A stretch of 64,000 nt of DNA, taken from NCBI GenBank assembly GCA_031283155.1, contig JAITCI010000018.1:13690-77689 (forward strand), in the 5' to 3' direction. The notes under the pieces were generated by a model. That model had not been told where the DNA came from and ran no database searches. It saw only the letters and a program-made list of their open reading frames with translations. The DNA comes from Spirochaetota bacterium (GTDB taxonomy: Bacteria; Spirochaetota; JAGLSM01; JAKPMW01). Positions 2,719-55,829 of the stretch are shown in pieces (positions within the stretch are counted from its first letter, which is position 1; each line of letters opens with the position of its first letter). Position numbers and translations under genes: made by a program.

Positions 2719-3693
2719 CTACGGCAGAGCGGGCAAAGCGGCAGGGCGATCGCGGTGCTGGAGCGTACTGTAGAGCATGGGATCAATCGCCTGCCCGCGA
2801 TGCTGCAGCTCAAAATGCAGATGCGGCCCGGTGGAATAGCCCGAACTGCCTACCCTGCCCAGCGCCTGCCCGGCGCGCAGGCGGTCTCCTGCATCAACAT
2901 CCCGCCGCGCGAGATGCCCATACAGGGTGCGGTATCCATAGGCATGGCGAATCACGACAAGATTCCCGTATCCGCCCGACCAGCCGGAAAATTCCACCAC
3001 CCCCTCCTTCGCCGCATATACGGGTGTGCCGGCAGCCGCCGCGAGATCCACGCCGCCGTGAAAGGCGCGATGCCCGGTGAAGGGATCATTCCGCGAGCCA
3101 AAGGCGGAGGAGAGCAACACCTCCTGCAGCGGGGACGCAAAGGCGGTTCCATAAAACATCCCCTGCTCAAGGGGATCCATGGACGCCCCCGGAACAAACA
3201 GCCTCTCCCCGCGCGCAAGACGATCGCGCACGAAGCCATTAAAGCGCATGATATCTCCCGCCGGAACGTCATATTTTTCGGCAAGCTCCGCAAGCGTACA
3301 GGAACCGGAACTCGCGTAACTGACGCCGTCAAAATTTGGGATCAGGATGCGATCCTGCGCTGCGGGCGCGTATACGAAGACCACGCCGCTTGCCGAAGCA
3401 ATCGCGTCCACGGAGATACCAAGCCGCGCGGCGACCGAGGGAAGCGAATCGCCCGGCTTCAGATAATATTCGGCGTACTCCAGCGCCGGAAACGCATATT
3501 CCCGCACATACCTGCCGCGGTAGCGTTTAGAAAGCGCGATCTCTTTTTTGAAACGCGCAAATACAGCGTCGCTCTCATGGAGTACATAGATGCGTTCCGG
3601 GATCGCGGCCTTTCCGCCGATCTGCGCGATGAGCGGTGCCGGAAAAATGAGAATAGCGAGAAGCAAAATTACACGATATACCGGCCTGGTCAT
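2719..3693 (-). CDS. LysM + M23 family metallopeptidase
   Basis: Signal peptide, LysM-like YYLKPGDSLPSVAARLG, M23 motifs HGGVD and STGPHLHFE. Confidence 0.9.
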   Translation of the reverse strand: MTRPVYRVILLLAILIFPAPLIAQIGGKAAIPERIYVLHESDAVFARFKKEIALSKRYRGRYVREYAFPALEYAEYYLKPGDSLPSVAARLGISVDAIASASGVVFVYAPAAQDRILIPNFDGVSYASSGSCTLAELAEKYDVPAGDIMRFNGFVRDRLARGERLFVPGASMDPLEQGMFYGTAFASPLQEVLLSSAFGSRNDPFTGHRAFHGGVDLAAAAGTPVYAAKEGVVEFSGWSGGYGNLVVIRHAYGYRTLYGHLARRDVDAGDRLRAGQALGRVGSSGYSTGPHLHFELQHRGQAIDPMLYSTLQHRDRPAALPALP

Positions 3694-6291: not shown

Positions 6292-7230
6292 ATGCACATT
6301 ATAATGATTCTTTTCTTTGCGCTGACTATTCTCTCATGCGGCGGCTCTTCCGCAGGCGTAAAGCCCGATTACGTACCCGCAGGCCCCGTACAGGAACGCA
6401 TCCTCACCGAGGCGCGGGTATATGAAGCAAACGCTTTCGACCAGTACGAGAACCGTGACTATCAACCCGCGATTGGGAATTACCAGACTGCGCTGAGGCT
6501 TCTCACCCTCATTGACAACCAGCAAGAGATAGCCCTGGTGCGCCACAATATGGCAAACGTGCTTATCGCGCTGCATAACCATACGGGTGCCGAAAACGAA
6601 ATTGAACTCTCTCTCAGGGCAAACCGCAGCTTCGAATACCCGCTGCGTATTGCCGCAAATCTGGCCAGCCTGGGTACAATTTACGAGGCAAGATCTGACC
6701 TGGATAAAGCTCTTTCGTATTACAGTGAGGCGCTGGATCTTCTTCTGAAAAACAGAGGCTCAGCGAATATGACAGCACGGCAGTATAATAACTGCGGGTA
6801 TATATTGCTGAAGCAGAAAAAATACGACGAAGCAAAGAAGCAATTCGATCTTGCGCTGAGCAAGGCTAAATCTGCTTATGCGCATCTTGAGGCGGGAGCA
6901 GCCTACAGTGGTATCGGAAAATACCAGTTTGAGATGAAACAAATGGATTTGGCTCTGAGATCATTTGGAAACGCGCTCATTGCGTATAAAGCCGCCGAAT
7001 CATCCGAAAATATTGCCATCAGCCTGAAGGATCTCGCGCTCACATACGAAGCCCAGGGCGATACGGGAAAAGCCATTGATCATACCGAACGCGCCTATAA
7101 TATCAACAGGATGCTGCAGCTTGAAAACAGATGGCGGCAGGATCTGGATGTTCTGATTCGCCTGCATACAAACGCCGGAAATACCGCCAGAGCAGAGGAA
7201 TACCGACGCCTCCTCCGCTCAGGGCGATAG
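6292..7230 (+). CDS. TPR-repeat lipoprotein
   Basis: RBS GGGGAG, ATG 6292, lipobox ILSC, repeated TPR-like helices (NLASLGTIY...KALSYYSEAL). Confidence 0.75.
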   Translation: MHIIMILFFALTILSCGGSSAGVKPDYVPAGPVQERILTEARVYEANAFDQYENRDYQPAIGNYQTALRLLTLIDNQQEIALVRHNMANVLIALHNHTGAENEIELSLRANRSFEYPLRIAANLASLGTIYEARSDLDKALSYYSEALDLLLKNRGSANMTARQYNNCGYILLKQKKYDEAKKQFDLALSKAKSAYAHLEAGAAYSGIGKYQFEMKQMDLALRSFGNALIAYKAAESSENIAISLKDLALTYEAQGDTGKAIDHTERAYNINRMLQLENRWRQDLDVLIRLHTNAGNTARAEEYRRLLRSGR

Positions 7231-7304
7231 TGCGGCAAAGCCGCATCCATGGGGAATGCGTCCTGCTTGACCCGGAGGGACAGAATTTCGTAGATTGAAT
7301 AATC

Positions 7305-7868
7305 ATGGATGACTCTTCATTTGAACGTGTCGTTATAGAGAGCGTTTCATTTAATAACCTCGGCTTCGTCGTGCTTTTACGCAGGGAGGACAGCCGGGCT
7401 GTTCTCCCGATCTTCATCGGGGCAAGCGAAGCGCATTCCATCGCGCATGCCTTCAATAACCAAAGTTTTCCAAGACCGCTTACCCACGATCTCTTCACAA
7501 GCACCCTGCGTCTTTTGGACTGCAGCGTACCCTACGTAGCCGTTACCGATCTTATCGAAAATACATTTTACGCAAAGATATTTATCCTGCGGGAAGACGC
7601 GGAAAAATATCAAATCGACGCGCGTCCCTCCGACGCAATCGCGATAGCCCTGCGCTTTACCGCGCCCATATACGTAAGCAAAGCTGTTATGGAAAATGCG
7701 GCGATTATCCTCTCTCCGGACAATGAAGGGGAAGAGGAGGAAAATACCGAGAACACCGAACCCGCAAGTTCTCTCCGGCGTGAATTGGATATCGCAATCT
7801 CGGAAGAACGCTACGAGGATGCCGCGCGGCTTCGCGATGAACTGAAGAAAATACTCAATAAAAATTAA
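7305..7868 (+). CDS. Bifunctional nuclease family (DUF151) with C-terminal UVR motif
   Basis: LPIFIGASEA, RPLTHDL, DARPSDAIAIALR, AISEERYEDAARLRD. Confidence 0.9.
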   Translation: MDDSSFERVVIESVSFNNLGFVVLLRREDSRAVLPIFIGASEAHSIAHAFNNQSFPRPLTHDLFTSTLRLLDCSVPYVAVTDLIENTFYAKIFILREDAEKYQIDARPSDAIAIALRFTAPIYVSKAVMENAAIILSPDNEGEEEENTENTEPASSLRRELDIAISEERYEDAARLRDELKKILNKN

Positions 7869-7886
7869 AAGGCATAAGGCAGGATC

Positions 7887-9788
7887 ATGAAGATACGCAT
7901 ATCCATCATTCTGTTTTTTGCGCTTCTTTTCCCGATATCCCTGTCTGCGGCTTTCAACACCTCATTTATCCCGTCTCTCTTTCCGGCATTTGCCTCCGCC
8001 GATGAAGAAAAATTGGTGCGCGAATTAGAGAAAAAGAAACTGAGTTCTTTCACATTTCTCGACGCCTCGCTGATTGCCTCCGGAGCAAGTCCGGAGAGCC
8101 TGGATGGGTACAGGCAAAAATACCGCAGTCTCTCGGAAAAAATCCGGCGCGATTTGCCCACGCTTGGGCTTGACGCCATGAGCCGCGCGGCAAAAATATT
8201 TGAATTGATGTTCAAATACGCCATGTCCACATATAAATCCGAGCAAACCACGCTTTTGGAGATACTGAATGAGGGAAGTTTTAACTGCGTTTCCGCTACC
8301 CTTCTCTATAACCTTCTTGCGGAGGAATACGGTTATGAGACGCAGGCTGTGGTTGTTCCCGAACACGTCTATAGCCAGATTCGGATCGGCGGAAACTGGA
8401 TCGATGCGGAAACCACAGCATCCGGAGGCTTTCATCCCCTGCGGAAGCCGGAGAATGCGGTTTCAAACCGCTATTATATTGAAGATAAGGGTAAAAACGG
8501 ACAGAAAACATTTATGCCTGCGCAAAGACTCATTGCGCTTTTATACTATAACCGCGGAACACTCTCCCATCATCAAGGGAACGATCAGACCGCGCTTGGG
8601 CTGCTCTTCCGGGGACTCCTCATCTTTCCGGAGCATATTGAGTCACAGGAAAATTTTCTCTCCTTTTTGATTGATTGGGCACAAAAGGAAAGCAGGGCGG
8701 GGAGAAGTGCCGCAGCTCTCGGTATATGCGACGAAGCGGAGCGCGCTCTCGGAGCGCATAAGGATTTGATTCCTCTGCGCGAATATGTTGTTTTTGAAAG
8801 CGCGGAACAATCCGCCAAAAAGGGTGATTTTGCGGGCGCGGTTTCGGCAATAGAGCAATATCTGAACTCCCTGAAGAATAAAAAGCCTGACCATGTGATG
8901 ATCCTTCGCGGGTATCTGCTTGCCTGGGCGCAGCAAAGCCAACAGCAGCGCAGCTATGAAAAAATGCTTGATCTCATTAAACGAGCATCAAAGGAAGGGC
9001 TTGACGCCCAGGCGGATTCCATGAGCCTTTTCATCATTACGGAAGCGGCAAAGCAGATTGCGAAAGATGAAGGCTTTGAAAAAGGCTGCGCCTTTTACGA
9101 CAAGCAATATCCAAAAAAAAATGAGAGCCTTGCTGTACAGCAAAACCGCCTCTACCTTCACGGACTCTGGATTAATTCCCATGTGGCGTCAAAAAAATAT
9201 GAAGAGGCCTATCTTCTCTGCCGCAATCTGCAGCAAAGTTATCCGGACAACAAGGATATGCAGGGACTTGCTGTATGGATTGTGCAAAAATGGGCGGACG
9301 ACTGGGCAGCGGCCAGCAAAGACATTAATTATATAAACGGTATGTCGGCGCTCTACATGAGGCATCAGGATCCGGCTATCGCGAATGAACTGGTCAACCG
9401 CGCTATTCGGGACATAAACCAGCTTCAGCAAAATAAGTTTTTTGAGCGAGCCTGCGAGAATCTCAGGATACTTATATCCCTGAAGCTCGGCGCAGAAAAC
9501 ACACAATTGATTAACGAAATGTATCGCGTGGTTCTGAATAACTGGGGGATATACCACGCCGAGCGCGCCGAATTTGCCGAGGCCATCGAAATCGGGAAAC
9601 GCGCCCGAAAACTCTTTCCAGGCGATCCTGCTATCAATACCAACCTCGCAAATTTTTACTACAGCGCCGGGGTTGAAAAGCTTAACCGGCAGCAATATGA
9701 CGCTGCCGCGAAAATTGCGAACGAGGGACTTACGGAATTTCCCGGCAACGCCGGCTTGCTGAAATTACGTCAGCTTATTCCTCGTTAG
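7887..9788 (+). CDS. Secreted transglutaminase-like domain + TPR protein
   Basis: Signal peptide; FNCVSA / PEHVY / IDAETT suggest a Cys-His-Asp triad; TPR-like helices follow. Confidence 0.65.
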   Translation: MKIRISIILFFALLFPISLSAAFNTSFIPSLFPAFASADEEKLVRELEKKKLSSFTFLDASLIASGASPESLDGYRQKYRSLSEKIRRDLPTLGLDAMSRAAKIFELMFKYAMSTYKSEQTTLLEILNEGSFNCVSATLLYNLLAEEYGYETQAVVVPEHVYSQIRIGGNWIDAETTASGGFHPLRKPENAVSNRYYIEDKGKNGQKTFMPAQRLIALLYYNRGTLSHHQGNDQTALGLLFRGLLIFPEHIESQENFLSFLIDWAQKESRAGRSAAALGICDEAERALGAHKDLIPLREYVVFESAEQSAKKGDFAGAVSAIEQYLNSLKNKKPDHVMILRGYLLAWAQQSQQQRSYEKMLDLIKRASKEGLDAQADSMSLFIITEAAKQIAKDEGFEKGCAFYDKQYPKKNESLAVQQNRLYLHGLWINSHVASKKYEEAYLLCRNLQQSYPDNKDMQGLAVWIVQKWADDWAAASKDINYINGMSALYMRHQDPAIANELVNRAIRDINQLQQNKFFERACENLRILISLKLGAENTQLINEMYRVVLNNWGIYHAERAEFAEAIEIGKRARKLFPGDPAINTNLANFYYSAGVEKLNRQQYDAAAKIANEGLTEFPGNAGLLKLRQLIPR

Positions 9789-11472
9789 CGTAAGTTTTCC
9801 AGGCAGCGCGAAACCCCGTCTGCAAACCTTTGTATAGATTGAACAGAAGTCCAAGTACCAGCGCCAGCCCTCCAAGATACGCTCCCGCAATCCCGAGAAA
9901 ATCGCCATGCCGCGTATATACGCTCTGTCCATATCCGCGCATGAGTGAAATGTTACCGTCCAGAATACCGACCGTATGATTCGGAAGACGCGCCTGCATC
10001 CGTCCCCAGGCGTCAATGACGCAGGTGACTCCGGTATTGGCGGCGCGCACCATATACCGGCGGTTTTCTATCGCGCGCAGAATGGCCATCGCGGCATGCT
10101 GCTCCTGCGACTGTACGCTCCTTGACCAGTAATCATTTGTCGTATTGATCAGAAATTCAGCGCCGCCCAGAACAAATTGCCGACAGAGACCCCCAAATAT
10201 GTCTTCAAAACAGATAACCACGGAAAACGCCGTGTCTCTTTCCCGGAATACCGTATACCGCGTACCGGGCGTGAAATCACTTGCCACCGTATCCCGCAGA
10301 ATTTTTGCGACAAAAGGAAACTCTTTCTTGTACGGAAACCATTCCCCAAAGGGAACAAGGTTAATTTTGTAATAGCTATCCAGCACATTGGTGCCTGGAG
10401 TAACAAGGAAAGCGGCGTTATAGGATTGCATCTCCAAGCCGGGACTGCCGGTTACATTCGTCACCGCAACACGATCACGATGCGGTGCCGTCAAAAGCAC
10501 CGCCCGTCCGGCGCGGTCCGGCATACCCACAAACCACTCCGCAATCCGCCGGTCGGAATTGTCCTCCGGTGCCATCCTGAGATATTTCCAGTAATACATT
10601 CCGGGCGGATGCGAAAGGGTTTCCGGCCAGATAATCAGATCCCCCCCGCCCTTGCCTGCCTGCAGGGTCAGATCGGTGATTTTCTGCATGGTTTCGGCAT
10701 AGCGATCCCGCGCCCAATCTGTTTCCGGATCCACGAAAGCCTGAATGAGATGTACCTTGTACTCCGCACCTGACGGTTTCTCCGATAAACGCAAAGCCCC
10801 GTAAAGAAGAGAAAAACCAAGAAGCGCGCCGAGACAACAGAGCAATATCCGCTTTCGCCGCCGCGTGTCCTGTCGGAAGAGATACGCGACAACCGCATTG
10901 GCAAAGACCACCAAAAAGGAAACGCCCCATACGCCCGCGATATCAGCGATCTGCAATATGGGCAGAAAAGCTGTTTGCGAATATCCCGCCAGACCCCAGG
11001 AATAGCCAAGAAAACCCGTAGAGCGAAAATACTCAACGCCTGCCCAGAACAGGGAGAAGAGCAGAGGATCGAGCCATGGAAAACGATCACGGCTTATTCG
11101 CTGCCAGACAGAAAGAAAGAGAAAGGGCAGGGAAAAATAGAGCGCAAGGGCAGGAACTGCGGTAAAGAGCGCCATGACGTGAAAGACATGCATCCAGTAC
11201 GCAAGCACAAGCCAGAAAGACATCCCCGCCAGAAACGCAAACAGCCACATCCGCTTCACGGAAATGCCGCGCTGCATCACCAGCAGCGGAACAAAGGCTA
11301 TCCACGCAAGCGGGAAGATATCCGTGAGCGGGAAAGCCAGCCCAAGAGCCGCGCCGGAGATAATCGCGATAACCGCGCCCGCACAAAAAGCGAAGAAACG
11401 TCTGGGAAGAGGTTGTTCCTTATCATACCAGGGACGCCCAAAGGCAGAGAGGAAAATTCTCCGGAAAACCAT
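9775..11472 (-). CDS. lnt: Apolipoprotein N-acyltransferase
   Basis: Multiple TM helices; nitrilase triad IIWPE, YYKINLVPFGE, VICFED; RAIENRR..VRAANTG. Start uncertain; ATG 11472 has a GAGGT RBS. Confidence 0.92.
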   Translation of the reverse strand: MVFRRIFLSAFGRPWYDKEQPLPRRFFAFCAGAVIAIISGAALGLAFPLTDIFPLAWIAFVPLLVMQRGISVKRMWLFAFLAGMSFWLVLAYWMHVFHVMALFTAVPALALYFSLPFLFLSVWQRISRDRFPWLDPLLFSLFWAGVEYFRSTGFLGYSWGLAGYSQTAFLPILQIADIAGVWGVSFLVVFANAVVAYLFRQDTRRRKRILLCCLGALLGFSLLYGALRLSEKPSGAEYKVHLIQAFVDPETDWARDRYAETMQKITDLTLQAGKGGGDLIIWPETLSHPPGMYYWKYLRMAPEDNSDRRIAEWFVGMPDRAGRAVLLTAPHRDRVAVTNVTGSPGLEMQSYNAAFLVTPGTNVLDSYYKINLVPFGEWFPYKKEFPFVAKILRDTVASDFTPGTRYTVFRERDTAFSVVICFEDIFGGLCRQFVLGGAEFLINTTNDYWSRSVQSQEQHAAMAILRAIENRRYMVRAANTGVTCVIDAWGRMQARLPNHTVGILDGNISLMRGYGQSVYTRHGDFLGIAGAYLGGLALVLGLLFNLYKGLQTGFRAAWKTYANEE

Positions 11473-11512
11473 ATATGCACACCTCATCCTTGCCTCGCCA
11501 AAGTATCCGAAT

Positions 11513-12412
11513 CTATTGCTCAAGCGGATGGCACTCATTATACATCTTAAGAAGATACGCAGAGACGAGGTGCGTATACACCTGCGTTGTTCCGATATCG
11601 GCATGGCCCAGAAATTCCTGCACCGAGCGCAAATCGGCACCGCCCTCCAAAAGATGGGTAGCGCAGGAGTGCCGGAGGGTATGCGGCGAGAGGGGCTTGC
11701 CTATGCCTGCCCCGAGAGCGGCGGCATGCACAATCTTCCAGGCACCCATGCGCGACATTCTTTTTCCGCGGACATTCAGAAACACATAATGATTCCGTTC
11801 CTTCCCGAGAAGAGCCTGCCGCGCATACCCAAGATATTCGCGGAGCAAGTGCAGCGCGCTCTCCCCTGCCGGTACCACGCGTTCCTTTGAGCCCTTCCCC
11901 CGCACGGTCAGAAAACCGTCGGTAAAATCAATGTTATTCATGGACAGATCCAGAAGTTCCGAGATGCGCAGCCCGCAGGAGTAGAGAAGCTCGATCATGG
12001 CGCGATTCCGCAAGCCCGCGCTCGTATTGGGCTTGTTCCAGCTTATGAGCGCCTCGACCTCCTCGCGGGAGAGGAGCGAGGGCAGCGTACGCAGGCTCTT
12101 TGGGGAGTCGATGAAGGCGAGCGGATCGGCATTGATGGTGCCCTCCGTCAGAAGAAATTTATAGAACTGCCGGAGCGTGACCAACCGCCGCGCAGCTGTC
12201 GCCGGACGGGCGCCCTCCTGCCGCATCTTCCAAAGCCAGGCGACTATATCCGTCTCGCCGACAACAAGCCAATCCTTTTTCTGCGCGGCACAGAAGCGCA
12301 TAAAAAGAATCAGATCGCTCCTGTACGCTTCCAGGGTTGCGCGCGCGAGTCCCTTTTCCACCGCGAGGGTCGCGCAAAAATCGTCAAGAACGTGTACCGC
12401 GCCTGCCGGCAT
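11513..12412 (-). CDS. xerD: Site-specific tyrosine recombinase XerD
   Basis: RNRAMIELLYSCGLRISEL, HTLRH, LGHADIGTTQVYTH; chromosomal context. Confidence 0.88.
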   Translation of the reverse strand: MPAGAVHVLDDFCATLAVEKGLARATLEAYRSDLILFMRFCAAQKKDWLVVGETDIVAWLWKMRQEGARPATAARRLVTLRQFYKFLLTEGTINADPLAFIDSPKSLRTLPSLLSREEVEALISWNKPNTSAGLRNRAMIELLYSCGLRISELLDLSMNNIDFTDGFLTVRGKGSKERVVPAGESALHLLREYLGYARQALLGKERNHYVFLNVRGKRMSRMGAWKIVHAAALGAGIGKPLSPHTLRHSCATHLLEGGADLRSVQEFLGHADIGTTQVYTHLVSAYLLKMYNECHPLEQ

Positions 12413-52041: not shown

Positions 52042-52521
52042 CTACAGGTCCAGCCGCGAAAGCGTGTCGCCAATCGCGTCCAGATCGCCGTTCTCCCGTA
52101 AATCGCGCTCGTAGGCGTCCTTGTCCCATATCTCGATGCGCCGCCCCACGCCCACCACCACGCAATCCCTGGTGATCGAGGCATAGTCGCACAGAACCTG
52201 CGGTATCAAAATCCGCCCCTGTTTATCCGCCGCGAGTTCAACCGCCGGCCCGATGAATTTGCGCTGAAAAATGCGATGTTCGCGGTTGCCCATCGAGAGC
52301 CCCGCGAGCTTGTCCTGCAGCATCTCCTGCCAGGCCTCTGCGGTAAACAGATACAGGCAGGCCTCAATGCCCTTGGTGACGACCCACAGCTCGCGGCCAT
52401 CGATCCAGGATGCATACCCCCGAAATCTTGCCGGCACGGCAAGCCGCGATTTCTCGTCGAGGGTATGGAGATTTTCGCCGGAAAAAAGGTCTATTCTGCG
52501 AGTTCCATTGGGAGATTCCAC
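52042..52521 (-). CDS. mraZ: Division/cell wall cluster repressor MraZ
   Basis: LDEKSRLAVP, DKQGRILIP, RIEIWD; GTG start with GAGG RBS (TTG at 52524 also possible). Confidence 0.93.
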   Translation of the reverse strand: MESPNGTRRIDLFSGENLHTLDEKSRLAVPARFRGYASWIDGRELWVVTKGIEACLYLFTAEAWQEMLQDKLAGLSMGNREHRIFQRKFIGPAVELAADKQGRILIPQVLCDYASITRDCVVVGVGRRIEIWDKDAYERDLRENGDLDAIGDTLSRLDL

Positions 52522-52594
52522 CAAATTTCCTCATAATTCCCCAAATTTCCCCACCCACAACCACAAGTCTAGCTTCCATGCCCGGGTTTGTCAA
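52517..52594 (-). promoter_or_regulatory. dcw promoter with MraZ boxes
   Basis: TTGACA-N17-TAGACT followed by 10-nt periodic TGG(G/T) boxes (GTGGTTGTGG GTGGGGAAAT TTGGGGAATT ATGAGGAAAT TTGGTGG). Confidence 0.8.
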
Positions 52595-52676: not shown

Positions 52677-52718
52677 GGCGTTCCGAAAGGTTTTCTCCAC
52701 TTGTATGAGAGGCATGGT

Positions 52719-52837
52719 GGAAAGGGCGTCCAAAGTCTTGCCACTTTCACAAAGCTGCGCGAACGGGAGCGCTTGCTTTCCCGTGTTGCAGCGAAAAACG
52801 ACCGCTGAACCGCGAACATGGCGCGCGCGGCAATTTT
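52719..52837 (+). repeat. Direct repeat copy 1 (about 118 bp)
   Basis: Near-identical to 54951-55067 (a few substitutions and a 2-bp indel). Confidence 0.92.
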
Positions 52838-52973
52838 AGTGAAATGTGCAAATCTTCTGAACATGGCACGAAGTGTGCAGAGCAACGCGAAGCGCGCGGA
52901 GCAGTCTGCTCGAAAAGTTATGCCCTCGCTCTGCGCGCTTCGCGTCGGACATTGCCGTAAGAATGGATTGTAT

Positions 52974-53020
52974 CGTCGCTTGTACCCTTACCCCCGCAGG
53001 GGGTAAGGGTACAAGCGACG
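52974..53020. repeat. Perfect 22-bp inverted repeat with 3-nt loop
   Basis: CGTCGCTTGTACCCTTACCCCC-GCA-GGGGGTAAGGGTACAAGCGACG. Confidence 0.95.
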
Positions 53021-53224
53021 AACGTCAGCACAACCGGGATTCGCGGGCAGCCCAATTATGCGTTTGTTTGCCGCGAAAAAACCGAAAAAGAATCGAATAA
53101 AATCCAACAACAAAAAAGGGATTACAGCTTAGAACACAGCAAAGTGTCCTGTGGGTACGAGACCACAAAAATGACTAAAAGGGTAATTGTAGTTTTGTTA
53201 AGGCTCCACAAACCCCATTTTACA

Positions 53225-54829
53225 TTATTCTCTTATCATTTCAACATAATTCAAAGGGTTTATCAATACTGATACACCATCTGTTGTCTTCCCTGTCTTA
53301 AATACGTGTTTCCAAAAATCATAATTATTTTTTCCTGAAAATATTGTGCTTGCCATGCCTCTATCTTTCCATAGAGGCAATTTAACTAAATTTTTTACAA
53401 ATATTTCCAAGTTATGCCACAATTGATCATCAAAAGGTGTTTGGAATAATTTATTTTTATCAAATATCTTGCCAGTAGTAGAAAAATAACTTTCAACAAC
53501 TTTTTGTAGAAATAACAACCAATTATAAATTATTTCTTCTTTACTGATTCTATATGCAATTAAATGATCATCGGTTATATCTGCATCTTTTTTATCAATG
53601 ATCTTCTGCTCAATTCTGGACACACCTATATCAGGGTTGAATTTCCCGATATATATTACTTCAGCTATTATATTCAATAATTTCACAAGTTGATATATTT
53701 CAAGTTCTCTTGGGTTATTTCCCTCGTCAGTCTTATACCCGATATTTGTAGTTAAAATCAACTTTGAATCTAAAAATATTGAAAGAAATGTTTTTTCAAA
53801 GGCACTATATGATAAAGGGAGTCCTTTAGCTTTACCTTCAAAATCGATATAATCTTTTAATTTATTATCAGCAGAATAAGTTATTGAATGTTTTAAGCTG
53901 TCAATAATATATTTACGTATATTTATTCTTTCTCCTTTAAAATAATCTACCAATTGTTGCTCTGAAAAATCAAAATTATCGTCGCCAAAACTATGTTCTG
54001 ACTGATACCTCTTTATACGCTCATAATATAAGGTATTATTTAATTGGCGCATAATGGATTTATCAAATGCAATTTGCCGCAGAATACTGCCTGCATTTGT
54101 ATTTGTTTCTGTTAAGCGATCAACATCTGGACTCAAAAACAACCTTAAAAGCAATTTTTTACTATTCAATAAAATTTGTGCAACTGCCTTATGCTGCCCA
54201 TCAAAAATAACTATCTTTCCATCTTTAATGCGAGCCAACGAAATGTGCAACTGCGGATTACCCTTATAAAACTCTTTTACTAATAATGAGACGCTATTAT
54301 TGATACCACGAGGATTAATAAGACGATCATGAAACAGATATTCAATAGGTATATGTAAGAATACAGTTTTTTCATTGGACAAATTGTCTTCAAATATCTC
54401 AGAATAATAAATTTTGTTATCATTAATATCTGGAAACGAGTAAGAAAGTTTATTGTCTTCTATTTTATATTTAAATTCATACGAAGAACCGCCATAAAAT
54501 TTTAATACATCTTCGAGCGAGGCAGACCGACCATTATCCTTCTCGGATACATCCTTTTGAATTTTTCTTAATTTTGCCAATATTCTGGAAATCCTTAGAT
54601 CAGAGTCCTGTTTAGACTTATTGCAAGAAGCATGTGTAACAGCAAAATTTTCTTCAATATCTTTCCCTTTATTCGCCAAAGGAATAATATGGTCAATATT
54701 AGTATCATGTAAAACCAAATCTATAGATTCTTGGCATATATAACAGATATTGCTTTGAATTTTCAATAATTTTGCGGTTAAATCTTTATATTCGTCATTC
54801 GTTAATGCCTCTAAATATTTTGAAACCAT
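53225..54829 (-). CDS. HNH endonuclease fused to a ParB/DGQHR-like domain (AT-rich)
   Basis: CYIC...DHIIP...N...H..CN at the N-terminus; INPR...IFDGQHKAVAQ centrally; GGAGG RBS before ATG 54829. Confidence 0.8.
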   Translation of the reverse strand: MVSKYLEALTNDEYKDLTAKLLKIQSNICYICQESIDLVLHDTNIDHIIPLANKGKDIEENFAVTHASCNKSKQDSDLRISRILAKLRKIQKDVSEKDNGRSASLEDVLKFYGGSSYEFKYKIEDNKLSYSFPDINDNKIYYSEIFEDNLSNEKTVFLHIPIEYLFHDRLINPRGINNSVSLLVKEFYKGNPQLHISLARIKDGKIVIFDGQHKAVAQILLNSKKLLLRLFLSPDVDRLTETNTNAGSILRQIAFDKSIMRQLNNTLYYERIKRYQSEHSFGDDNFDFSEQQLVDYFKGERINIRKYIIDSLKHSITYSADNKLKDYIDFEGKAKGLPLSYSAFEKTFLSIFLDSKLILTTNIGYKTDEGNNPRELEIYQLVKLLNIIAEVIYIGKFNPDIGVSRIEQKIIDKKDADITDDHLIAYRISKEEIIYNWLLFLQKVVESYFSTTGKIFDKNKLFQTPFDDQLWHNLEIFVKNLVKLPLWKDRGMASTIFSGKNNYDFWKHVFKTGKTTDGVSVLINPLNYVEMIRE

Positions 54830-54879
54830 AAATCTTTTCCTCCAAAGCATCATACGATGTATTTATTTCTATATGCTTC

Positions 54880-54940
54880 ATTATTTCACAGGAAATATCT
54901 TTTGTCAACTGTTTTTCCCATATTTGTTTTTCCCATATTT
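54880..54940 (-). promoter_or_regulatory. Putative promoter of the HNH gene preceded by a 15-bp tandem repeat
   Basis: TTGACA-N17-AATAAT; GTTTTTCCCATATTT x2 at 54911-54940. Confidence 0.55.
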
Positions 54941-54950
54941 ATACATTTTT

Positions 54951-55067
54951 GGAAAGGACGTCCAAAGTCTTGCCACTTTCGCAAAGCTGCGCGAACGGGA
55001 GCGCTTGCTTTCCCGAGTTGCAGCGAAAAACGACCGCTGAACCGCGAATGACGCGCGCGGCAATTTT
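54951..55067 (+). repeat. Direct repeat copy 2
   Basis: Near-identical to 52719-52837. Confidence 0.92.
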
Positions 55068-55114: not shown

Positions 55115-55333
55115 TCAGACGACCTGGTAAATGATCGGGCGGTACTGAGGTTTCGGAATCGGGATATTGCTGTTTTTTGCCTCTTCAAGCCAAAGTTTTT
55201 GGGCGATTAAGACCTGTTGCAGAGCGTCATTCGGCGTTTTTCCAAAAGCGCTGCAATTCTTCAAGTCCGGAATATCCGCAATATATCCTTCGTCGTCATC
55301 ACTGTAAAAAATATTTATATGATAGTCCTTCAT
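55115..55333 (-). CDS. hicB: HicB-family antitoxin (short)
   Basis: YIADIPDLKNCSAFGKTPNDAL; no C-terminal DNA-binding domain. Confidence 0.88.
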   Translation of the reverse strand: MKDYHINIFYSDDDEGYIADIPDLKNCSAFGKTPNDALQQVLIAQKLWLEEAKNSNIPIPKPQYRPIIYQVV

Positions 55334-55335
55334 GA

Positions 55336-55587
55336 TCAGTCCTCCATTTTCAAATTATATTTTTCAATCAAGGCAAAGAACTGCCTTACCTGATACGGCT
55401 TAGCTTCACCATGGACATTTTGAATGTTCATAATTTCTTTAACTGAGTCATTCCTGAATATAGTATGGCTTCCTTCTGTCCTCGCGAGATAAAATCCATA
55501 CGCTTCAAGAATAGTTACAAAGTCATTGTATTTAACATTCTTTTGATTGGAGAGTATTTGCTGAAGCAGTTTTTGCTTATTCAACAA
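55336..55587 (-). CDS. hicA: HicA-family toxin
   Basis: LEAYGF..RTEGSH.IF...AKPYQVRQ. Confidence 0.88.
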   Translation of the reverse strand: MLNKQKLLQQILSNQKNVKYNDFVTILEAYGFYLARTEGSHTIFRNDSVKEIMNIQNVHGEAKPYQVRQFFALIEKYNLKMED

Positions 55588-55829
55588 TATGCTCCTTTAT
55601 TCCCCGCGACGCCGTTTATAACAGCGGCTGCGTTTCCATTATAGACAAAAGAGCCGCTGCTGGCAAGCTCGCCGCCGCCCGGGGCACATTCAGAGACGGA
55701 ACGATTTTTGTACTGGTTCCCGCGTATCTTTTATCCGGGATTATGCCTTTCAGGTATTACGGCACACAACTTCGCGGCTATGTAGTCTTGTCGTCCCCGC
55801 TCGCGGAACGCTTGCTTTCGGCGGGAAGT

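Follow-up and report, generated by a model that had tools for sequence, protein, structure and literature searches.

The minus-strand gene at 53225-54829 of a 64,000-nucleotide (nt) stretch of Spirochaetota DNA (assembly GCA_031283155.1, contig JAITCI010000018.1, positions 13,690 to 77,689; the whole stretch is called the window below) encodes a protein in which an N-terminal HNH nuclease domain, a central ParB/Srx-fold domain with a DGQHK motif and a long helical C-terminal domain are joined in one chain. The product of this HNH-DGQHK gene is best explained, with a probability of roughly 0.55, as a self-contained, horizontally mobile and stand-alone immune DNA endonuclease of the restriction-like kind, gated by a nucleoside triphosphate (NTP). 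It is a good candidate for a one-gene anti-virus nuclease. Support comes from the domains of the protein, from the way in which the family has spread and from the defence loci in which part of its members reside.

Counted from its first ATG, the open frame runs from 54853 to 53225. All homologues open with M-x-SKYL, and a GGAGG stands 9 nt before the ATG at 54829; hence, this ATG is the true start and the protein has 534 amino acids (aa). The first-pass annotation, made from the letters of the window, had placed the open reading frame (ORF) in AT-rich DNA. This is borne out: the GC content of the gene is 0.29, against about 0.57 for the flanks and 0.55-0.64 for the neighbouring kilobases, and the AT-rich patch consists of the gene with about 100-150 nt on each side. 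The 29% GC of this DNA and the more than 1,700 full-length homologues exclude chance as the origin of a frame of 534 codons. The gene is intact and recently acquired, and its product is uncharacterised.

The N-terminal domain carries the zinc-binding HNH motifs (CYIC, DHIIP, N..H..CN) as they had been described: C29-x2-C32, D46-H47-IIP, N61, H66-x2-C69-N70 and K73. It belongs to the Pfam HNH family PF01844, which it matches with 29.9 bits for a gathering cut-off of 21.4. Conservation was followed in 89 full-length members (65 copies from genomes, 24 representatives from databases); the counts for the zinc and catalytic residues are listed in Table 1. The active site is intact and held by purifying selection. 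Two members apparently devoid of the HNH domain, P0211 and P0216, are contig-end truncations and were rejected as real architectures. A profile built from the family picks up the En domain of a group II intron maturase (6me0, E = 3e-11) as well as many HNH domains of Cas9 proteins, and a Foldseek search of the PDB with the model also returned the HNH domains of Cas9 and McrA. Among PADLOC, NCBIfam and PHROGs models, only the HNH core of ~70 residues was matched (PtuB, Cas9d, IscB, retron HNH and phage HNH families).

The central domain contains the INPR...FDGQHK pair that had already been noticed, at residues 171-174 and 209-214. All 89 members carry DGQHK unchanged; the complete set of invariant positions is P161, P173, F187, D210-K214, A217, E290, P338 and R374. 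An AlphaFold2 (AF2) model of the whole protein, built from a 27-sequence alignment, has a mean predicted local distance difference test (pLDDT) score of 90.4. For the central part of this model, a Foldseek comparison with the PDB retrieved Noc, the ParB proteins of Myxococcus and Bacillus (with CDP or CTPgammaS), PadC, sulfiredoxin, KorB and SbnI, at probabilities near 1.0 and E-values of 1.6e-3 to 1e-1; for ParB, Noc, PadC and sulfiredoxin, the probabilities were 0.96-1.00 and the template modelling (TM) scores ~0.5 when normalised by the target. These matches assign the domain to the ParB/Srx fold proposed in the first-pass annotation. In BFVD, the matches were ParB/Srx proteins, "DNA-sulfur modification-associated" (DndB-like) proteins, AIPR and the N-terminal domain of a GmrSD protein. 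FDGQHK lies at a strand-turn-helix junction of the model (strand 205-210, helix 212-220), the place in this fold where ParB has its box II, sulfiredoxin its GCHR and DUF262 and DndB their DGQ(Q/H)R (PMC4619093), all of them sites of nucleotide-phosphate binding.

At the sequence level, TIGR03187 (DGQHR) was found in two of the 27 members tested, with an E-value of 0.0038, below the cut-off of this model. A profile-profile comparison was performed as well: starting from a genuine PF14072 protein of a same-phylum genome, its family was collected, 20 members were aligned and the alignment was compared by hhalign. The probability obtained was 87% (E = 3.8e-6, 116 columns), with DGQHK aligned to DGQHR, and the alignment runs on into the helical region up to P338. 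The DGQHR signatures QR, DGQHR and FxxxN correspond to P173-R174, D210-K214 and N243; the spacing differs, and the substitution of Lys for Arg, recognised from the beginning, holds in 89 of the 89 members. By these profiles, the central domain is a remote homologue of the DGQHR/DndB family and not a member of it. ParB-fold proteins bind CTP, ATP or GTP, depending on the protein, and a DndB-like protein binds ATP and GTP (PMC12704722).

The long helical C-terminus, the third element of the earlier description, is clearly visible in the model. Residues 254-534, modelled alone (281 residues), gave a pLDDT of 91.6 and a predicted TM score of 0.90. Next to the invariant E290, P338 and R374, residues E377, R427 and W487 are near-invariant. 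The first ~100 residues of this domain align to the DndB family in hhalign. No Pfam or PHROG model matched the domain and no counterpart was found in the PDB, the best Foldseek match having an E-value of 1.8 and a probability of 0.05. A HEPN-type Rx4-6H motif was looked for in the sequence around the invariant R374 and was not seen.

The family is large. Among its scored candidates, a word-indexed search yielded 1,779 relatives; the best 120 are full-length, 65-89% identical and labelled "HNH endonuclease" or "hypothetical protein". A library of representatives at 50% identity gave 717 matches, and at least 560 loci encoding a member were counted when each species was represented by a single genome. 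The hosts belong to the Bacillota, Bacteroidota, Spirochaetota, Pseudomonadota, Campylobacterota, Planctomycetota, Atribacterota, Chloroflexota, Actinomycetota, Synergistota, Melainabacteria and several phyla of the candidate phyla radiation (CPR), with one metagenome-assembled genome (MAG) of a Nanoarchaeia (DPANN). In another genome of the phylum (L099, 1162-2670, minus strand), a 502-aa protein reads HNH...LLFDGQHKAAA at an identity of only 29%; the architecture therefore reaches well beyond the close clade.

This distribution does not follow the phylogeny of the hosts. The maximum-likelihood gene tree conflicts strongly with taxonomy: the sister of the window copy comes from the Oscillospiraceae (99% support), the Nanoarchaeia copy is nested in bacterial clades, and a Clostridium MAG and a Melainabacteria MAG have near-identical copies. 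Neither of the two same-genus genomes contains the gene, nor do 38 of the 39 other relatives searched, and its GC content is below that of the flanks in nearly all of the 68 loci analysed. Together, these data show rampant horizontal transfer of the family. The 87% identity of the DNA to the closest relative (L106) sets in 87 nt ahead of the ATG and ends 8 nt beyond the stop codon, and the flanks of five more distant loci (300 nt upstream and 300 nt downstream) have nothing in common; the travelling unit is therefore the promoter plus the ORF. The dissimilarity of these flanks also led to the rejection of a conserved non-coding partner, such as a guide RNA or element ends. Carriage by phages or plasmids was rejected as well, as only HNH-core matches and no full-length match were found in 50,697 phage and 72,556 plasmid records.

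Some copies probably reside in integrons. A Desulfobacteraceae MAG (L067) encodes a true integron integrase (TIGR02249, 430.7 bits for a cut-off of 265) close to its family member (Table 1), which is probably an integron cassette. In a Spirochaetales MAG (L107), a homologue of 84% identity lies between two attC-like sites, 1156-1399 and 3141-3208. Their ends match (GCCTAAC...hairpin...GTTATGT: 5' TAACAGGTCTGT... and 3' ...CAGCCGGAAC/RTTATG), their middles differ, and the bottom strand forms an imperfect hairpin. An attC heuristic detected downstream hairpins in only 3 of the 68 loci and did not recover L107; its sensitivity is therefore low and its outcome carries little weight. For the window copy, the cassette origin was rejected: the genome has no integron integrase (best score 81.5 bits for the cut-off of 265), and the L107-type attC end motif is absent at this copy. 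Four of the 68 copies (L070, L076, L083 and L087) are split or truncated; these are frameshifted or stopped pseudogenes, or assembly errors.

The neighbourhood of the relatives was analysed by clustering all ORFs within 6 kb in the 68 loci. The link of relatives to defence loci, put forward earlier as something to look for, was found in the form of restriction-modification (R-M) systems. An HsdR protein of ~1,000 aa (Pfam HSDR_N, SWI2_SNF2, T1R_D3, EcoR124_C) is encoded within 4.6 kb in 13 of the 68 loci, and in five of them hsdR lies immediately upstream, 10-34 nt away. HsdM and HsdS are further recurrent neighbours, as are tyrosine recombinases (seven loci) and an Eco57I-type enzyme (three loci). 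When the flanks were searched again with three HsdR queries, 11 hsdR genes were recovered: all 11 are upstream, 10 are co-directional, and none was located downstream or at a distance of 6-10 kb, the sequence covered being 544 kb upstream and 487 kb downstream. Scans of 133 immediate neighbours with PADLOC and Pfam confirmed the Type I restriction enzyme and methyltransferase models, and also revealed RhuM, AAA_21/AbiEii-type ATPases and Peptidase_M78/helix-turn-helix (HTH) pairs.

Fourteen of the 65 intact copies are located in or beside R-M loci. These 14 are scattered over the gene tree, requiring 13 changes, at least 11 of which are forced by supported branches; the linkage therefore arose repeatedly and independently. 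Two loci, L075 and L077 (7061-13167), from a Clostridium MAG and a Gastranaerophilales (Melainabacteria) MAG, possess near-identical operons of the order hsdR, family gene, hsdM. Either a whole R-M operon moved between phyla or one of the bins is mis-assigned.

Such an arrangement can also be read as that of an R-M accessory or guard rather than of an autonomous enzyme. The protein would then work with Type I enzymes or monitor them, for example firing when HsdR or HsdM is inhibited, or it would regulate R-M as DndB does dnd, the solo copies being remnants or served by an unlinked R-M system. The constant position of hsdR upstream, almost always in the same direction and with very short gaps in five loci, fits this explanation, as does the place of the gene between hsdR and hsdM in L075 and L077. 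Moreover, the nearest sequence family, DndB, is a regulator (PMC12704722, PMC3632139). However, no R-M gene lies within 6 kb of ~78% of the intact copies, and a linkage gained or lost at least 11 times suits co-location in defence islands better than an obligate partnership. The unit conserved at the DNA level is the promoter plus the ORF alone, and a pure regulator would not need the conserved HNH active site. An accessory role is thus considered unlikely, although it is the rival that survives best.

The mobility of the gene could likewise be that of a selfish nuclease, homing-like or addictive, with HNH breaks aiding its own insertion or retention and no benefit to the host. The very compact transferred unit, the transfer across phyla and domains with no detected plasmid or phage carrier, the closeness of the HNH domain to the group II intron En domain and the four disrupted copies are in line with such a lifestyle. 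It is nevertheless very unlikely: flanks and insertion sites differ between loci, four homologous loci show no flanking repeats, and the gene lies in no intron, intein or target-gene context. All 534 residues are under strong purifying selection, including a 280-residue domain for which homing would have no need, and at least part of the mobility is explained by integron cassettes and by the transfer of whole R-M operons. The least probable explanation is a sequence-specific Type II-like restriction endonuclease with an unlinked or unrecognised methyltransferase: HNH Type II enzymes exist and Eco57I-type enzymes neighbour three loci, but most loci, including the window, have no methyltransferase within 6 kb, and a solo unprotected nuclease would kill on transfer, yet the gene crosses phyla alone.

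For the preferred explanation, a stand-alone immune nuclease, the following mechanism can be proposed. The ParB-like domain would bind an NTP (ATP, GTP or CTP) and serve as a switch, and DNA, or a modification of it, would be sensed by the helical domain. The two would jointly license the HNH domain to nick or cut foreign DNA, the host DNA being spared. This logic would be the one of GmrSD, BrxU and SspE, assembled independently. The copy of the source genome would have been gained recently and alone, and would be expressed from the promoter that it carries, at a site upstream of the dcw cluster.

Several observations weigh against this proposal. About three quarters of the copies, including the one in the window, stand among housekeeping genes with no recognisable defence neighbour, and on the first long contigs examined the gene was a solo insert among such genes. 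The proximity to hsdR is judged against an estimate: with presumably about one Type I R-M locus per genome, fewer than 1% of random genes would lie this near hsdR, a figure obtained without a matched control. The Pfam models of ParB (PF02195), DndB (PF14072) and DUF262 (PF03235) gave no match at E ≤ 1 in the 27 members tested; the Foldseek E-values are modest (1e-3 to 1e-1) even if the probabilities are high; and Lys occupies the place of the usual Arg in DGQHR. Sequence does not allow nucleotide binding to be predicted (PMC12704722). Finally, the support consists of sequence, models and context.

A more detailed version of the proposal is tentative, somewhat below an even chance: a pan-prokaryotic (bacteria, CPR, DPANN) single-protein immune nuclease, in which a DndB-type switch and a new helical sensor of 280 residues gate an HNH domain of the Cas9/group II intron type, and which moves as a promoter-plus-ORF module, sometimes as an integron cassette, and repeatedly settles behind hsdR. 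The sensor might respond to modified DNA, to a DNA structure or to the nucleotide pool, as a cue beyond those of known Type IV enzymes.

Table 1. Position of the HNH-DGQHK gene, its protein domains and the neighbouring features. Coordinates are those of the window, except for the last two rows, which refer to the integron locus L067.
Feature	Position	Strand	Basis or detail
HNH-DGQHK gene, 534 aa	53225..54829	-	ORF and homologues; stop codon 53225-53227
HNH core, residues 29-75, CxxC...DH...N...HxxCN...K, CCHC zinc type	54605..54745	-	Pfam PF01844
Zinc/catalytic residues kept (of 89 members)			C29 89; C32 87; D46 88; H47 87; N61 89; H66 87; C69 87; N70 86; K73 86
Beta-rich linker, about residues 105-167, less conserved	54329..54517	-	DSSP strands 120-167 in AF2 model; conservation 0.49-0.56 per 20-aa bin
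ParB/Srx-fold, DndB-like domain, about residues 161-255	54065..54349	-	Foldseek, BFVD, hhalign
Motifs INPR 171-174 (NPR 172-174), FDGQHK 209-214, N243	54188-54205 (FDGQHK)	-	
C-terminal helical domain, residues 256-534	53228..54064	-	Separate AF2 model
Ribosome-binding site GGAGG	54839..54843	-	Read from sequence; 9 nt ahead of ATG at 54829
Sigma-70-like promoter, TTGACA-17-AATAAT with TG extension	54880..54908	-	Predicted; 11/12 consensus match
Direct repeat copy a, downstream of gene	52718..52827	+	110 nt
Direct repeat copy b, between gene promoter and hicB-like gene	54950..55059	+	94% identical to copy a
hicB-like gene	55115-55333	-	Pfam HicB_lk_antitox 23.5 bits, under cut-off 27
hicA	55336-55587	-	Pfam HicA_toxin 37.2 bits, cut-off 27
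L067 integron integrase	6913-7902	-	Divergent from family member, 2.1 kb upstream of it
L067 family member	10001-11551	+	

In the window, the island that contains the gene is flanked by mraZ (52042-52524) and a murT-like gene (56105 onward); in the source genome, it is a recent accessory acquisition adjoining the cell-division (dcw) cluster. The same-genus genomes are divergent (MraZ 69% identical) and their murT is not syntenic, which ruled out an empty-site comparison. The promoter claimed for the gene is a predicted one: the site is a consensus match, but the upstream stretch is kept in L106, and boxes equivalent to TTGACA and the extended -10 also precede the gene in the relatives L106, L107 and L018. 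Just upstream of the -35 box (54903-54908), an exact tandem duplication of 15 nt, TGTTTTTCCCATATT (twice), occupies 54910-54939. No intrinsic terminator was found for the gene. Between its stop codon and repeat copy a, the GC-rich DNA holds a perfect inverted repeat of 23 nt with a 3-nt loop (52973-53021) and a second hairpin of 18 nt (52885-52945); these might stand in for a terminator or represent a palindromic mobile element.

The direct repeats reported on both sides of the gene are real, and a pair of this length and identity is not expected by chance. The 110-nt repeat belongs to a dispersed intergenic family, with ~10 more partial copies on other contigs (nhmmer, E < 0.02). The two local copies are far more alike than any other copies in the genome, a sign that the insertion may have come with a recent duplication or recombination. 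Four homologous loci (L006, L007, L011 and L014) lack such repeats; hence, these are not a feature of the gene family, and they were rejected as its hallmark. They were also rejected as attC sites, with fold z-scores of -1.4 to -2.3 and branched folds.

Of the adjacent toxin-antitoxin pair announced in the first-pass annotation, which lies upstream of the gene on its strand, HicA stands above its cut-off, but the HicB-like match falls below. HicAB is not a conserved partner, as no toxin-antitoxin neighbour recurs across the 68 homologous loci. The pair is itself partly AT-rich (GC 0.31-0.36 over 55300-55600), and beyond it GGAACGCTTGCTTTC, a degenerate third fragment of the repeat core, is found at 55805-55819. 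The hicAB region may be a small array of modules acquired separately.

The combination of a ParB-fold NTP module with a His-Me nuclease in a defence role is of a known kind; the HNH-DGQHK variant is new. If the proposal is true, a very widespread and compact defence gene (1.7 kb with its promoter, at least 560 species) has been missed by the catalogues searched, and a second, independent route has led to the design of a ParB-fold NTP switch with a His-Me nuclease, beside the one of GmrSD and SspE. The biology of ParB-fold nucleotide switches would be extended to a DndB-like branch undetectable by the 2025 fold survey discussed below, and the sensor domain would offer an orphan fold for structural study. 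The strict order of hsdR followed by the gene makes a tractable system for the cooperation of an accessory nuclease with Type I restriction.

The first-pass annotation could not assign the protein to a named system, and this remains the case: PADLOC-DB 2.0, Pfam, NCBIfam and PHROGs match nothing beyond the HNH domain. PADLOC-DB 2.0 gave no full-length match, only matches of the HNH core to PtuB and Cas9 models with E-values of 6e-5 or weaker. No description of the family was found by literature searches on DGQHR/DndB-like proteins, on ParB-like plus HNH proteins and on integron-cassette defence. The HNH cores of Septu PtuB, retron HNH proteins and Cas9/IscB are alike (E = 1e-4 to 1e-8), over ~70 residues only. 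Unlike these systems, the family has no PtuA ATPase, retron, RuvC domain or guide RNA.

ParB, Noc, KorB and PadC are the best structural matches, and the idea of an NTP-controlled switch acting on DNA is common to them and to the family. In contrast to the ParB-CTPases, the protein has no GERRxR box (it reads DGQHK), no PF02195 match, no HTH/parS logic and no ParA partner. In 2025, a survey of the ParB-CTPase fold reported fusions of PF02195 with PF01844 in bacteria as novel and uncharacterised; its searches used PF02195 at the gathering threshold (PMC12704722). Since the HNH-DGQHK family does not match PF02195, this survey would not have found it.

The nearest family by profile comparison is DndB/DGQHR (PF14072, TIGR03187), whose three signature motifs have counterparts in the protein, with Lys for Arg and another spacing. 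The differences are that the family stays below every threshold of these models, that an N-terminal HNH domain and a beta linker are added, and that DndB acts as a regulator and has no nuclease function. Neither dnd nor ssp genes are recurrent neighbours in the 68 loci, and the window has none. Elsewhere in the phylum, a genuine DGQHR/PF14072 protein of 365 aa (L017, 78-3411) is flanked by two methyltransferase-like ORFs, recognised by motifs only. With these neighbours and no dnd genes, the DndB-like protein would have surroundings resembling an R-M locus.

The closest parallel in design is offered by GmrSD, BrxU and SspE. They likewise combine in one chain a ParB/Srx-fold DGQ(Q/H)(R/K) module, a helical region and a His-Me-finger nuclease, and likewise occur stand-alone or inside R-M, BREX or phosphorothioate loci. 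In GmrSD and SspE, NTP binding or hydrolysis governs nicking or cleavage (PMC4619093, PMC13251355). In the 27 members tested, PF03235 was not found at E ≤ 1, and PF07510 (DUF1524) was found in a single one, with an E-value of 0.1. The ParB-like part is nearer to DndB and ParB than to the DUF262 of GmrSD, and the C-terminal domain has no structural match. The reversed domain order noted in the first-pass annotation is correct: compared with GmrSD and SspE, the nuclease is N-terminal and DGQHK lies in the middle of the protein. The permutation deduced from it is not borne out, as the nuclease is a zinc-type HNH (PF01844) of the Cas9/group II intron kind and theirs is DUF1524. Because of this PF01844-type nuclease and of a central domain nearer to DndB and ParB, the architecture is an independent fusion that reached the design of GmrSD and SspE from other parts.

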